Source: a virus
Lineage: Duplodnaviria > Heunggongvirae > Uroviricota > Caudoviricetes
DNA length: 41,185 bases
Strand: one strand, 5' to 3'
Virus record (IMG/VR): IMGVR_UViG_2859783438_000002
The notes under the pieces were generated by a model. It saw only the letters and a list, made by a program, of their open reading frames with translations, was not told the origin of the DNA and did not search any database. The first letter of the stretch is position 1; the number at the start of each line of letters is the position of its first letter. Made by a program: the position numbers and the translations under genes. Shown piece by piece: positions 845 through 41,185 of this stretch.

Positions 845-1189
845 ATGTCAGATTTGGCTATGAAGGTTTTGAAATGGCAATCAACTGGCGATGTCGGCAT
901 CAGTAGCGCAACTCTTGCCTCAATCGCATGTGGCCTGAAAAAGAATATCTATGGTCATCACTTCGGCGCTCCCCATGACGCAGCAGACTTTCGGCGATGC
1001 GTTGCACTTGTTGAGCAGATTCCAGAAATCAGAGATTCATTCGACAAGGTTGCAAAGCGCGTTCCGGCATTCAAAGGAATCCTCAACGAATGGGATTCAC
1101 TCGTTGCTCTGTTGAAGTCTGAAATGAAGACGTACGGGAACAAAGCACCAGAGACTTACAGAAGAATCAGCGAGCTACGCAAGGACTAA
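845..1189 (+). CDS. Hypothetical prophage/island protein (114 aa)
   Basis: ATG at 845 preceded by GGAGA; sits directly upstream of the TorI-like gene. No family recognised. Confidence 0.45.
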   Translation: MSDLAMKVLKWQSTGDVGISSATLASIACGLKKNIYGHHFGAPHDAADFRRCVALVEQIPEIRDSFDKVAKRVPAFKGILNEWDSLVALLKSEMKTYGNKAPETYRRISELRKD

Positions 1190-1311
1190 CCCGCCTCACA
1201 CTCGATGAGGCCTGTTCATTTCTCAAGATATCCAGACCTACCATTGCTGCATCAATGCGGCTTTTTATTGCCTGATTTGCAGGTTCGATTCCATATTCGG
1301 AGATAGCACTC

Positions 1312-1512
1312 ATGCAACACGAACTACAACCTGATTCACTGGTTGATTTGAAATTCATCATGGCTGATACTGGCTTCGGTAAGACCTTCATCTATGACCG
1401 GATTAAGTCCGGCGACCTGCCTAAAGCCAAAGTTATCCACGGACGAGCAAGATGGTTATATCGTGACCATTGTGAATTCAAAAATAAGCTCTTAAGCCGC
1501 GCCAATGGGTAA
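1312..1512 (+). CDS. torI: TorI/AlpA-family excisionase-like DNA-binding protein (66 aa)
   Basis: 66-aa ORF with HTH-like segment (FGKTFIYDRIKSGDLP), GGAGA RBS. Size and context (argW 3'-end att copy downstream, csc/dsd-type locus beyond) match torI of KplE1/CPS-53. Confidence 0.55.
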   Translation: MQHELQPDSLVDLKFIMADTGFGKTFIYDRIKSGDLPKAKVIHGRARWLYRDHCEFKNKLLSRANG

Positions 1513-1578
1513 AATAGCGGGTAAAATATTTTTCAAATCTAAAAAACAGCATTCCAATCAATCCCCTGCCGCCTCAAG

Positions 1579-1600
1579 TAGATGTCTGCAGGGGACACCA
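1579..1600 (+). other. att core-like copy of the 3' end of tRNA-Arg argW (CTGCAGGGGACACCA exact, imperfect upstream)
   Basis: 15-nt exact match to the argW 3' terminus as I recall it, with partial identity extending 5'; located just downstream of the torI-like gene as expected for attR. Confidence 0.45.
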
Positions 1601-2040
1601 GATACCCTTCAAACGAAATCTACCTTCACCCCGTAAAAGATGGGTTTGGCAGCACACTTGCCTTATATCTACTCATTTTTACTGCAACAGGTTGAAATCT
1701 CAGCACTGTCAGAAAGCGCTGATGACTAAACAGCCCTGGGCCGGGCGATGTAACCATCACACAGAATCCTGATAGCGAAATATGGCGTGACTCGATACTT
1801 CACTCCGCAATGCATTCCTTGATGAATTCGCAGGACCGTGATACACGGGACAGGTCGCTGAATGACGACAATGTCCTGGAAATCAGCGAACCGCGCATCT
1901 GAAGTACATTTGAGCGACTGTACCAGAACATGAATGAGGCGTTTGGATTAGGTGATTATTAGCCGGGCTAAGCACTTTAGTATTATTATTTTCCGGTTGA
2001 GGGATAGGGAGATATCGACAACAACCGGAAAAGTTTACGT

Positions 2041-3288
2041 CTATATTGCTGAAGGTACAGGCGTTTCCATAACTATTTGCTCGCGTTTTTTACTCAGGAA
2101 GAAAATGCCAAATAGCAACATTAGGCAGACAATACCCGAAATTGCGAAGAAAACTGTCTGGTAGCCTGCGTGGTCAAAGAGTATCCCAGTCGGCGTTGAA
2201 AGCAGCACAATCCCAAGCGAACTGGCAATTTGAAAACCAATCAGAAAGATCGTCGACGACAGGCGCTTATCAAAATTTGCCACGCTGTATTTGAAGACGG
2301 ATATGACACAAAGTGGAACCTCAATGGCATGTAACAGCTTCACTAATGAAATAATCCAGGGGTTAACGAACAGCGCGCAGGAAAGGATACGCAACGCCAT
2401 AATCACAACACCGATAAGTAATGCATTTTTTGGCCCTACCCGATTCACAAAGAAAGGAATAATCGCCATGCATAGCGCTTCGAGTACCACCTGGAATGAG
2501 TTGAGATAACCATACAGGCGCGTTCCTACATCGTGTGATTCGAATAAACCTGCATAAAAGACAGGAAAAAGTTGTTGATCAAAAATGTTATAGAAAGACC
2601 ACGTCCCCACAATAAATATGACGAAAACCCAGAAGTTTCGATCCTTGAAAACTGCGATAAAATCCTCTTTTTTTACCCCTCCCGCATCCGCCGCTACGCA
2701 CTGGTGATCCTTATCTTTAAAACACATGTTGATCATCATAAATACAGCGCCAAATAGCGAGACCAACCAGAAGTTGATATGGGGACTGATACTAAAAAAT
2801 ATGCCGGCAAAGAACGCGCCAATAGCATAGCCAAAAGATCCCCAGGCGCGCGCTGTTCCATATTCGAAATGAAAATTTCGCGCCATTTTTTCGGTGAAGC
2901 TGTCAAGCAAACCGCATCCCGCCAGATACCCCAGGCCAAAAAAGAGCGCTCCCAGAATTAGACCTACAGAAAAATTGCTTTGCAGTAACGGTTCATAAAC
3001 GTAAATCATAAACGGTCCGGTCAAGACCAGGATGAAACTCATACACCAGATGAGCGGTTTCTTCAGACCGAGTTTATCCTGAACGATGCCGTAGAACATC
3101 ATAAATAGAATGCTGGTAAACTGGTTGACCGAATAAAGTGTACCTAATTCCGTCCCTGTCAACCCTAGATGTCCTTTCAGCCAAATAGCGTATAACGACC
3201 ACCACAGCGACCAGGAAATAAAAAAGAGAAATGAGTAACTGGATGCAAAACGATAGTACGCATTTCTGAATGGAATATTCAGTGCCAT
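2041..3288 (-). CDS. cscB: LacY-family oligosaccharide:H+ symporter, sucrose permease CscB-like (415 aa)
   Basis: 12-TM MFS protein with LacY-family motifs (e.g. NFWVFVIFIVGTWSFYNIFDQQ); 415 aa matches CscB; PfkB-kinase 3' remnant (cscK) immediately upstream; argW att copy nearby. Confidence 0.6.
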   Translation of the reverse strand: MALNIPFRNAYYRFASSYSFLFFISWSLWWSLYAIWLKGHLGLTGTELGTLYSVNQFTSILFMMFYGIVQDKLGLKKPLIWCMSFILVLTGPFMIYVYEPLLQSNFSVGLILGALFFGLGYLAGCGLLDSFTEKMARNFHFEYGTARAWGSFGYAIGAFFAGIFFSISPHINFWLVSLFGAVFMMINMCFKDKDHQCVAADAGGVKKEDFIAVFKDRNFWVFVIFIVGTWSFYNIFDQQLFPVFYAGLFESHDVGTRLYGYLNSFQVVLEALCMAIIPFFVNRVGPKNALLIGVVIMALRILSCALFVNPWIISLVKLLHAIEVPLCVISVFKYSVANFDKRLSSTIFLIGFQIASSLGIVLLSTPTGILFDHAGYQTVFFAISGIVCLMLLFGIFFLSKKREQIVMETPVPSAI

Positions 3289-3359
3289 AATTACCTACCT
3301 GTCGTTAAAAAATTCACGTCCTATTTAGAGATAAGAGCGACTTCGCCGTTTACTTCTCA

Positions 3360-3420
3360 CTATTCCAGTTCTTGTCGACATGGCAGCGCTGTCATTGCCC
3401 CTTTCGCCGTTACTGCAAGC
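3360..3420 (-). pseudogene. cscK: 3'-terminal remnant of PfkB-family fructokinase gene (cscK-like), truncated by IS1
   Basis: Minus-strand frame reads ...LAVTAKGAMTALPCRQELE* ending at 3360; this is a typical PfkB/ribokinase-family C-terminus. Reading frame is cut by the IS1 end at 3422. Confidence 0.45.
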
Positions 3421-3674
3421 GGGTAATGACTCCAACTTATTGATAGTGTTTTATGTTCAGATAATGCCCGATGACTTTGTCATGCAGCTCCACCGATTTT
3501 GAGAACGACAGCGACTTCCGTCCCAGCCGTGTCAGGTGCTGCCTCAGATTCAGGTTATGCCGCTCAATTCGCTGCGTATATCGCTTGCTGATTACGTGCA
3601 GCTTTCCCTTCAGGCGGGATTCATACAGCGGCCAGCCATCCGTCATCCATATCACCACGTCAAAGGGTGACAGC

Positions 3675-3774
3675 NNNNNNNNNNNNNNNNNNNNNNNNNN
3701 NNNNNNNNNNNNNNNNNNNNNNNNNNNNNNNNNNNNNNNNNNNNNNNNNNNNNNNNNNNNNNNNNNNNNNNNNN
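3675..3774. other. Assembly/scaffold gap (100 N) inside IS1
   Basis: Run of exactly 100 N. Confidence 0.99.
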
Positions 3775-3912
3775 TAAAAGTCCTCTCTGCTCAGCATGTT
3801 GATGTCCTTTCTGGTGTGAGAACCTTAAGGAAACAACATGTTGGGTGGAGCGGACAATCCAAATGGCGAATTACCGTCTTATATCACTGGCGCTGACAAT
3901 ATCAATGATTTT

Positions 3913-4140
3913 CTGGTGCGTACCGGGTTGAGAAGCGGTGTAAGTGAACTGCAGTTGCCATGTTTTACGGCAGTGAGAGCAGAGATAGCGCTGATGTCCG
4001 GCAGTGCTTTTGCCGTTACGCACCATCTGGTGCGTACCGGGTTGAGAAGCGGTGTAAGTGAACTGCAGTTGCCATGTTTTACGGCAGTGAGAGCAGAGAT
4101 AGCGCTGATGTCCGGCAGTGCTTTTGCCGTTACGCACCAC
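3913..4140. repeat. Tandem direct duplication, 2 x 114 bp, within IS1 insA
   Basis: 3913-4026 and 4027-4140 are identical except the last base; yields the duplicated peptide seen in the InsA-like ORF. Confidence 0.8.
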
Positions 4141-4350
4141 CCCGTCAGTAGCTGAACAGGAGGGACAGCTGATAGAAACAGAAGCCACTGGAGCACCTCA
4201 AAAACACCATCATACACTAAATCAGTAAGTTGGCAGCATCACCGAAGTGGTAAAGAAGATAATAAAGAATAATATTTAGGGTTATAGGTCTTAGCCCATT
4301 TTAAATGGAAGGCAGACATGCAGCCATGCATACTTCGCATGGCAACATAA

Positions 4351-12150: not shown

Positions 12151-12691
12151 TAGACTGGCCCCCTGAATCTCCAGACAACCAGTATCACTTAAATAAGTGA
12201 TAGTCTTAATACTAGTTTTTAGACTAGTCATTGGAGTACAGATGATTGATGTCTTAGGGCCGGAGAAACGCAGACGGCGTACCACACAGGAAAAGATCGC
12301 AATTGTTCAGCAGAGCTTTGAACCGGGGATGACGGTCTCCCTCGTTGCCCGGCAACATGGTGTAGCAGCCAGCCAGTTATTTCTCTNNNNNNNNNNNNNN
12401 NNNNNNNNNNNNNNNNNNNNNNNNNNNNNNNNNNNNNNNNNNNNNNNNNNNNNNNNNNNNNNNNNNNNNNNNNNNNNNNNNNNNNNAAACGATAAAGCGT
12501 GACTACATCAGTATCATGCCCAAACCAGACGGGTTAACGGCAGCAAAGAACCTTGCAGAGGCGTTCGAGCATTATAACGAATGGCATCCGCATAGTGCGC
12601 TGGGTTATCGCTCGCCACGGGAATATCTGCGGCAGCGGGCTTGTAATGGGTTAAGTGATAACAGATGTCTGGAAATATAGGGGCAAATCCA
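12151..12691 (+). mobile_element. insCD: IS2 (ends intact, interior replaced by a 100-N gap) flanked by 5-bp target-site duplication ATCGT
   Basis: Left end TAGACTGGCCCCCTGAATCTCC, InsC N-terminus [18 protein letters not shown] from 12242, InsD C-terminus ...[29 protein letters not shown] at 12146-12150 and 12692-12696. Confidence 0.85.
12387..12486. other. Assembly/scaffold gap (100 N) inside IS2
   Basis: Run of exactly 100 N. Confidence 0.99.
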
Positions 12692-40027: not shown

Positions 40028-41185
40028 TTACTCCACTTTTTCATCAAGCCAATCCGCCCACCACTGCATCATTTCTCTGCGCTTATCGAGATACTGAGCA
40101 TGGTTGTAAATACCGCGCACAGATCCGCCGTTGGCATGTGCCAGCTGCACTTCAATAGCGTCAGCAGGCCATTCGTGCTCGTTCATAATCGTGCTGAATT
40201 CATGCCTGAATCCGTGACCGCTTTCCAGACCTTCATAGCCGATTTGTTTGATCACAAGCAATACCGCGTTCTCGCAGATTGGCTTCTTCTTATCGTTGCG
40301 CCCGGCAAAAACAAACTCTGAGACTGGTTTGGTGATTGAGCTTAGCGTAGTGAGAAGTTCAACCACCTGGTCTGACATCGGGACCACATGAATTTTGCGT
40401 CCCTTCATCACACTGGCGTCGATGGTGATAATCCTGTTTTCAAAATCGACGTTCTTCCATAGCATGGAACGAAGCTCTTTTGTTCTTAGGGCTGTGTAGC
40501 GTAAAACTTTGGTCGCAATGAGCGATACGATACTTCCTGAAAATGTTGCCAGTGCTTTGTTGAATGCAGGCATCTGGTCTGCTGGAAGGAACGGGAAGTT
40601 CTTCTTGCGGTATCCTTTCATGGCGTCTGCAAGGTCAGGTGCCGGGTTATATTTAGCCCTTCCGGTGACAATAGCGTAACGAAAAACCTCGCCGCATCTT
40701 CTGCGGGCTTTGTTGGCTCGCTCCATTGCACCGCGATCTTCAAATCTGCGGATTACTTCCAGCAGTTGCATCGGCTCAATATCCTGAATCTCAAGACCGC
40801 CGATGATGGGTAAAATGTCGTCATCAAACATTTTGGCAAGTTCAGTTGCATAGCCTACTGACCAGACTTGCTTCTTGTGCTCGTACCATTCCTTGTAAAT
40901 CGCACTAAATGAATTGTTGTTAGACGAAGCCTTTTTCGCCTTTACCGGAACGATGCCAACCGAGATGTCTTTCCTCGCAGTCCATGCCTTATCCCTTGCT
41001 TCCTGCAAAGTCATAAGCGGATATTTTCCGACGGTCAGGATTTTCTCCTTACCGTCAATCTTGTAGCGAAGCTGCCATACCTTTTTCCCGGATACAGGAA
41101 CATAAAGGTACAGGCCATTACCATCGAGAAGGCGGTATGGTTTTTCTTTCGGCTTTGCTGCTTCAATCTGCTTAACGGTGAGCAT
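40028..41185 (-). CDS. intD: Tyrosine integrase, DLP12 IntD-like (start codon at window end)
   Basis: Matches recalled IntD (MLTVKQIEAAKPKEKPYRLLDGNGLYLYVP...); C-terminal catalytic-domain residues present. Confidence 0.85.
   Translation of the reverse strand: MLTVKQIEAAKPKEKPYRLLDGNGLYLYVPVSGKKVWQLRYKIDGKEKILTVGKYPLMTLQEARDKAWTARKDISVGIVPVKAKKASSNNNSFSAIYKEWYEHKKQVWSVGYATELAKMFDDDILPIIGGLEIQDIEPMQLLEVIRRFEDRGAMERANKARRRCGEVFRYAIVTGRAKYNPAPDLADAMKGYRKKNFPFLPADQMPAFNKALATFSGSIVSLIATKVLRYTALRTKELRSMLWKNVDFENRIITIDASVMKGRKIHVVPMSDQVVELLTTLSSITKPVSEFVFAGRNDKKKPICENAVLLVIKQIGYEGLESGHGFRHEFSTIMNEHEWPADAIEVQLAHANGGSVRGIYNHAQYLDKRREMMQWWADWLDEKVE

Follow-up and report, generated by a model that had tools for sequence, protein, structure and literature searches.

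A conserved argW-like motif upstream of torI as a candidate operator in KplE1-type prophages

Organization of the torI-attR region

The window analyzed in this work, a stretch of 41,185 nt considered over its whole length, is E. coli chromosome, and its features are collected in Table 1. Two plus-strand segments on either side of torI match argW exactly when compared with the copy of this tRNA gene in a prophage-free strain (locus L001, 341-415; GTCCTCTTAGTTAAATGGATATAACGAGCCCCTCCTAAGGGCTAATTGCAGGTTCGATTCCTGCAGGGGACACCA). The first, TTGCAGGTTCGATTCC at 1277-1292, corresponds to argW 46-61, that is, to the last two bases of the variable loop (TT), the 5' strand of the T-stem, the T-loop and the CC of the 3' strand, and the second, CTGCAGGGGACACCA at 1586-1600, to argW 61-75, the 3' end of the gene including CCA. 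The two segments share a single base (C61) and, if joined, give contiguous argW 46-75, while in the window they are separated by 293 nt with torI (1312-1512) inside the gap. The initial annotation had described this contiguity, at a spacing of about 290 bp, and the argW sequence on which it relied, the positions and the contiguity all prove to be correct. The same is true of the absence of a complete tRNA gene, since ARAGORN detects none (0) in the whole window; no Rfam match was found in 1000-2000, and on the strength of these two empty searches a known RNA family or tRNA-like element was rejected.

Both the 16-mer and the 15-mer occur only once in the window, with up to two mismatches allowed (shuffle expectations 0.03 and 0.06, respectively), and the chance of a core-adjacent argW 16-mer arising on the same strand less than 300 nt from the core is about 500/4^16. 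In the 723 kb of fetched loci, the 11-mer GGTTCGATTCC is present 103 times against a random expectation of 0.34: 98 copies precede torI homologues, 5 lie in argW and 0 elsewhere. The uniqueness of the 16-mer in the window and this tally lead us to reject a chance match. No argW match of at least 10 nt was found 5' of 1277.

Table 1. Features of the torI-attR region and of the integrase gene in the analyzed window.
Feature	Position	Strand	Remarks
114-aa ORF	845-1189	+	HK022 gene 32 homologue ('N15 early protein homolog'); last early-left gene before torI
Intrinsic-terminator-like hairpin and T-run	1246-1267	+	GCTGCATCAATGCGGC and TTTTTATTGC; closes upstream module
TTGC-N5-TTGC	1268-1280	+	Counterpart of HK620 'cII protein' box (L005 1512-1524)
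16-mer	1277-1292	+	Conserved core 1280-1292, CAGGTTCGATTCC; GTTCG at 1283-1287
Shine-Dalgarno GGAG of torI	1299-1302	+	6 nt past motif; aligned GGAG column
torI, recombination directionality factor (RDF), 66 aa	1312-1512	+	100% identical to K-12 TorI; PDB 1Z4H; annotated in matching genomes
Primer attR-IHF2	1489-1508	+	Exact match; left end of 135-bp attR
Two GGGTAAAATA direct repeats	1507-1528	+	At torI stop codon; contain TAAA; kept in all lineages
TCCCCTGC	1562-1569	+	Perfect inverted copy of core bases GCAGGGGA (1588-1595), 18 nt off; conserved in P arm of all lineages
Putative phage-side core-type region (C site), AAGTAGATGTC	1575-1585	+	Inferred from inverted repeat GATGTC / GACACC around TGCAGGG
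attR core	1586-1600	+	argW 61-75; prophage-free genomes align from 1586 rightward
Native argW-downstream chromosome	1601-3421		Same as flank in prophage-free strain H10; normal-locus homology ends at 3421
cscB	2041-3288	-	Inside native argW-downstream flank
intS, cognate integrase	40028-41185	-	376/384 identical (98%) to IntS of strain Res13

The segment at 1586-1600 is an attR core of the usual kind, from a KplE1/HK620/Sf6-type prophage inserted in argW. Among 5,426 complete E. coli genomes, 3,105 match something in 1190-1640, and in those without torI at this site the alignment starts only at 1586, within the final portion of an intact tRNA-Arg, and extends to the right. The prophage-free alignments and the published KplE1 core (CTGCAGGGGACACCAT; PMC2951348) thus corroborate the earlier expectation that the second segment is the attR core of a KplE1-like element. 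The base following CCA is G in the window, not T, and the repeat is accordingly 15 nt long. With KplE1 (CPS-53), HK620 and Sf6, the known argW elements that use IntS and TorI, the window has in common the same TorI (compared with that of K-12), the 15/16-nt core, the order torI-attR and the same GGGTAAAA arm repeats. The comparison of torI flanks in other genomes that the initial annotation had called for further reveals TTGCAGGTTCGATTCC upstream of torI, hkaC and gene 18 in K-12, HK620 and Sf6, as in the window; the 16-mer is hence carried in the virion DNA of HK620 and Sf6 and is not peculiar to this insertion. The window departs from these elements in its leader (CCA instead of CCC at 1291-1293) and in the position of intS, which is inverted and 38.5 kb away, and its right flank is a csc-type locus, as opposed to dsdC for KplE1 in K-12.

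Fragments of the 3' ends of tRNA genes are reportedly found at prophage attR sites, and the 15-mer at 1586-1600 is exactly such a displaced 3' end. The 16-mer, in contrast, is no displaced or duplicated att core, being situated in the phage portion at a distance of 293 nt from the crossover.

The torI gene reads toward the core, which lies about 75 nt from its stop and 274 nt past its ATG, likewise in all relatives. TorI has no Pfam match at E <= 1e-3, so its identity rests on its complete identity to the K-12 protein and on PDB 1Z4H; no Pfam match was obtained for the ORF at 845-1189 either. The GGGTAAAATA repeats at the torI stop codon are IntS arm-type sites of the P arm, P' arm-type sites being defined by TAAA (PMC2951348). 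A 'caatcccctgc' block of the P arm is kept in every lineage examined, and the inverted copy TCCCCTGC may serve as a core-type site, provide an IHF context or form a transcript hairpin. TGCAGGG, flanked by the inverted repeat GATGTC / GACACC, is a putative 7-bp overlap, and in non-E. coli lineages the C-site region reads (A/G)TTCGATGTA, a degenerate copy of the T-loop adjoining the core. A 43-aa ORF at 1505-1636, the counterpart of HK620 hkaB and Sf6 gene 17, overlaps the torI stop and crosses the att core into the chromosome; it is probably not a real gene, since its C-terminus changes on integration.

The torI leader and its putative promoter

The DNA upstream of the 16-mer (1190-1274) is 95% identical to that of HK022/HK97. 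A mosaic junction between phages lies at 1246-1267, where three different hairpins precede an identical downstream leader among the IMG/VR loci. The second TTGC of the box at 1268-1280 is made up of the first four nucleotides of the 16-mer, and this part of the 16-mer is limited to the E. coli clade. Position 1293 is A in the window and C in K-12 and HK620 (GATTCCATATTC versus GATTCCCTATTC). The A, a variant shared by a minority of IMG/VR loci, creates CATATT, a better -10-like hexamer located 18 nt past TTGCCT. A promoter scan of 1100-1700 yielded no sigma-70-like promoter, and a sigma-70 promoter was rejected on this basis.

The place of the 16-mer, past the early-left terminator and before the start of the RDF gene, is that of the pI promoter of lambda and HK022, in which the CII box overlaps the start of xis. 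The 16-mer might then be the spacer of a lambda-type pI, activated by CII on TTGC-N5-TTGC and starting just before the ATG, so that int would be expressed without the RDF; we consider this unlikely. The HK620 record does carry a 'promoter: phage integration' (L005 1511-1549) and a 'cII protein' feature (1512-1524), and that of Sf6 a 'pI'; the GenBank pI and CII box (TTGCCTGATTTGC) of both phages were annotated by sequence inspection. HK022, whose upstream DNA is homologous to the window up to 1274 and which likewise shows TTGC repeats, has a classical TTGC-N6-TTGC at the homologous place, directly before xis, and in the window TATTCG lies 13 nt past the second TTGC, a geometry that we take to resemble that of lambda pRE. 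In the window, however, the spacing is N5, not N6, and about 18 nt of additional sequence contain the tRNA-like motif; in K-12 and in roughly one in four IMG/VR loci TTAC takes the place of the first TTGC, and the promoter scan is empty. In other lineages, conservation extends neither to the TTGC boxes nor to the putative -10, while no part of the leader is better conserved than the supposed spacer, a pattern for which the pI/CII annotation does not account. A promoter of this kind would nonetheless be compatible with the function that we propose below, if the motif were an operator inside it.

Conservation of the motif across lineages

Homologues of torI were gathered from IMG/VR, phage records and a set of genomes with one per species; they represent some 12-13 diverged lineages (Escherichia, Citrobacter, Serratia, Pantoea, Erwinia and Edwardsiella), whose TorI proteins are 74-100% identical. 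Over these aligned lineages, the only invariant columns of the leader are GTTCG.TT.C and one base of the Shine-Dalgarno sequence (G59), against a mean column identity of 53% in an alignment that includes the first 15 coding bases. The conserved island reads cAGGTTCGATT(T)CC while its flanks diverge, and fuller forms of the motif among the lineages are cAGGTTCGATTCC, AGGTTCGATTTCC and cAGTTCGATTTCC. GTTCG is positioned 26-35 nt, mostly 29, before the torI ATG and 4-6 nt from the Shine-Dalgarno sequence (16 in the Serratia type). Tandem duplications of the motif occur in Erwinia-type phages, with a period of 16, and, independently, in L096, with a period of 13. Some of its variants, ATTTCC and AGTTCG, depart from any tRNA, and the leader element thus seems to evolve under a constraint of its own. 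None of the non-E. coli loci with a KplE1-type torI-attR module extends to attL or argW; a Proteus tRNA-Arg(CCU), found in a locus of different arrangement, has the T-stem ACAGG/CCTGT.

The motif is missing in L008, L009, L095, L113, L119 and L124-L129, where torI abuts or overlaps the preceding gene or the homologues are distant. Since several of these lineages (L008, L009, L095, L113 and L119) keep TorI and its attL sites without it, the motif is dispensable. A comparison of L113 with L120 reveals a clean-looking indel of about 25 nt. L120 and L130 are enterobacterial-type torI modules with the motif that were recovered in metagenome-assembled genomes labelled Actinomycetes and Parachlamydiaceae, labels that most likely reflect binning contamination.

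This pattern bears on the reading of the 16-mer as the missing part of a split tRNA or, as the initial annotation suggested, the remnant of a nested integration. The 16-mer and the core would once have been contiguous argW sequence in an ancestral att site, torI and the P arm would have been inserted between them, and the 16-mer would persist as a neutral relic. In its favor speak the arrangement of the two pieces, which lie 293 nt apart on one strand and adjoin exactly in argW with a 1-nt overlap, the left edge of the match, formed by a TTGC common to lambda-type leaders that could be a microhomology junction, and the indel-like behavior of the motif in L113, which lacks the segment of about 25 nt. 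Nevertheless, attP has a degenerate T-loop (TTCGAT) of its own adjoining the core (GTTCGATgtaTGCAGGGGACACCA in the Serratia type, aTTCGATgtaTGCAGG in the Erwinia type and gTAGATgtcTGCAGG in E. coli), and the T-loop is hence present twice rather than divided. The upstream copy, moreover, overruns position 61 into CCTG(T) in the Serratia and Edwardsiella lineages (CAGGTTCGATTCCTG in the Serratia type, GACAGGTTCGATTCCCTGTC in the Edwardsiella and P. stewartii types). Around an invariant core, the match to the tRNA begins and ends at different positions in different lineages, as would be expected of selection on the motif and not of a junction, and a neutral 16-mer would not be expected to survive unchanged between lineages whose torI genes show only about 75% identity. 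Neither a second core nor a target duplication is found around torI, nothing 5' of 1277 resembles argW, and the leader 3' of the motif is unlike the tRNA tail (p = 0.17-0.99). With two T-loops, an overrun and this conservation pattern, the reading is not borne out, and we deem a split or a nested integration quite improbable. It would regain favor if a contiguous TTGCAGGTTCGATTCCTGCAGGGGACACCA were encountered in the attP of a relative with its RDF gene elsewhere. A degenerate version of the whole tRNA 3' end before torI was rejected as well, the segment between motif and ATG matching TGCAGGGGACACCA no better than shuffled sequences in 11 lineages.

The T-arm likeness of the motif also raises the question of an element acting at the RNA level, either a T-arm-like hairpin or a structure sequestering the Shine-Dalgarno sequence in the torI 5' UTR. 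The Serratia type can be written as CAGG-ttcgatt-CCTG and the Edwardsiella type as GACAGG-ttcgattc-CCTGTC, where the departures from argW compensate for one another, and pairing of UUCGA with UCGGA at the Shine-Dalgarno sequence is possible in the E. coli type. The hairpin potential is confined to these two lineages, however, with the stem dwindling to 1-3 bp in the E. coli, Erwinia and Citrobacter types. In addition, the RNAalifold consensus amounts to -0.3 kcal/mol, the single-sequence z-score is -1.7 and Rfam is empty. On account of the consensus energy, the mostly 1-3 bp stems and the z-score, both a conserved RNA hairpin and Shine-Dalgarno sequestration were rejected, and we hold a function in RNA to be very improbable.

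Discussion

A candidate operator before torI

The attR core and the recombination module described above are already known, and the upstream motif is a candidate cis-site of this module. A full-text search of the literature apart from the primary site-mapping papers and the HK620/Sf6 genome papers found no mention of it as a conserved tRNA-like element. The 16-mer appears to copy the argW T-arm/T-loop, that is, the half of attB directly left of the crossover. Our preferred reading, to which we would assign about an even chance, is that the torI leader or promoter contains, at 1277-1292, a conserved cis-element and candidate operator, bound by TorI or possibly by IntS. A protein of the recombination module would bind the motif and feed back on torI expression, either by occluding a weak promoter or as a roadblock placed shortly before the ribosome-binding site, and the element would resemble a tRNA since the binding protein is tuned to the argW att region. 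TorI would be the best candidate for this role, because the mapped TorI sites have the core GTTCG in the same orientation, with IntS as the alternative.

The initial annotation had also considered an integrase or RDF binding region. As a regulatory site this remains plausible and is what we favor, but as a substrate of recombination it does not stand, given that the 135-bp attR starts only at 1489. This fragment, which begins at primer attR-IHF2, suffices for efficient in vitro excision (PMC3509656). The start of the primer lies 197 nt downstream of the motif, which is outside the fragment and thus not needed for recombination in vitro.

The TorI sites on attL have been defined as 8-mers, with mutated cores GTTCG, GATCG and GTCCG (PMC2951348). 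Placed on a K-12-type locus via the published coordinates, sites I1-I5 read CAGTTCGC, CAGTCCGC, CAGTTCGT, TGGTTCGC and CAGATCGT, all of them in the orientation of the leader motif, and GTTCG at 1283-1287 on the plus strand agrees with this type of core in both sequence and orientation; variants of the motif in L098 and L110 read CAGTTCGAT. Like the motif, the mapped sites sit at a module promoter or leader, where TorI represses (PMC2951348), and some of the lineages with the motif show direct-repeat arrays as well. The resemblance is nevertheless partial. Against the 8-mer consensus (C/T)(A/G)G(T/A)(T/C)CG(C/T), the leader reads AGGTTCGA, matching I4 (TGGTTCGC) at 6 of 8 positions, and its first and last bases are unlike those of all five sites. 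The mapped sites have the flanks CAGTTCG[C/T], whereas the leader motif is AGGTTCGATTCC, so the base after GTTCG is A in the latter and C or T in the former. The conserved ATT(T)CC tail falls outside the I-site consensus, even though I1 is GTTCG-N3-CC in most lineages. Finally, I1-I5 are arrayed between the core and intS and act as five cooperative TorI sites on attL, while the leader motif precedes torI, is single in most lineages and represents a putative site. The 11-13-nt identity with argW could also be that of a captured tRNA fragment with another function or none.

The motif corresponds to the 10-13 nt directly left of the putative overlap TGCAGGG in attB, and it might consequently mimic the left half-site (B) of attB, which the catalytic/core-binding domain of IntS would bind, with integrase occupancy controlling torI. 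IntS is a known autorepressor (PMC2951348), TTCGAT is common to the motif and the phage C site, and a second argW-specific P4-type integrase gene (L010/L101) has TTGCtGGTTCGATTg 25 nt before its ATG. The motif fits the core-type consensus GATGTC/GGTGTC poorly, though, at 4 of 6 positions with arms inferred from attP, and the invariant GTTCG lies outside that putative consensus; the C site of the E. coli clade (GTAGAT), for its part, tolerates changes that the motif does not. Core-type sites, as in the case of lambda Int, are usually of low affinity without arm contacts. We therefore look upon an IntS half-site as a doubtful explanation of the motif. In L010 (2400-2460) and L101, the torI-attR core is followed by the second P4-type integrase (428 aa) in what constitutes a tandem island at argW, where TTGCtGGTTCGATTg lies between GGGGCA repeats and matches the 16-mer at 13 of 15 positions.

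The likeness of the candidate operator to a tRNA may stem from descent, if an argW T-arm was captured and co-opted, or from convergence, if the protein is tuned to the argW att region, and the sequences cannot decide between the two. Two lineages with fuller hairpin forms give a hint of descent. Convergence fits the position of the argW T-loop GTTCG on attL, 31 bp left of I1 (L117 45-236, K-12-type). The spacings of the six GTTCG-type motifs on attL (31, 20, 43, 10 and 10 bp) place them roughly on one helix face, and the argW T-loop GTTCG may be a sixth, unreported TorI site on attL. A footprint there would be hard to see, since the published attL fragment begins at argW position 41 (PMC3509656). 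A bolder and rather tentative extension, which we judge improbable though worth stating, is that TorI or IntS reads the argW T-loop as a sixth attL site in phase with I1-I5, and that a copy of it was recruited before torI as a feedback operator. If true, the same protein-DNA recognition would set both the chromosomal target and the expression of torI, and mimicry of an attB half-site would extend across the argW phages of the Enterobacterales.

Implications for the control of excision

TorI represses the module promoter PintS through sites of this kind, while PtorI has been called non-characterised (PMC2951348). The transcription of int is uncoupled from that of the RDF gene in this phage family, and the control of excision has been argued to lie in the expression of the RDF (PMC2951348). 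Because excision control is thus assigned to RDF expression and PtorI is described as non-characterised, the tRNA-mimicking motif 29 nt before the torI start provides a concrete candidate for the missing control element. More generally, matches to tRNA fragments in the vicinity of att sites should not be read automatically as att scars. A practical corollary concerns the attL-KpnI primer (…GCTAATTGCAGGTTCGATTCC; PMC3509656), which ends in the 16-mer and hence has a second perfect 3' target before torI in every lysogen.

The integrase gene and the far end of the window

The cognate integrase gene lies 38.5 kb to the right of torI and attR in inverted orientation, and the window ends exactly with it, so that attL and argW would be located just past the window end. 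Between torI/attR and intS are found the argW flank, cscB, an IS1 region (3422-4243) and, on the plus strand, a lambdoid late and lysis region (5200-37000). The homology with the normal argW-csc locus stops at the end of IS1 (3421). The torI...intS arrangement reads like the outcome of an IS1-mediated inversion, which would turn the att sites into inverted repeats and leave a locked or invertible prophage, but a scaffolding artefact may also account for it. Two stretches of N, each exactly 100 long, are present at 3675-3774, inside IS1, and at 12387-12486; they may be assembly gaps or masking, and adjacency across them is uncertain. The insA part of IS1 contains a perfect tandem duplication of 114 nt at 3912-4139 (2.0 copies, 100% match).
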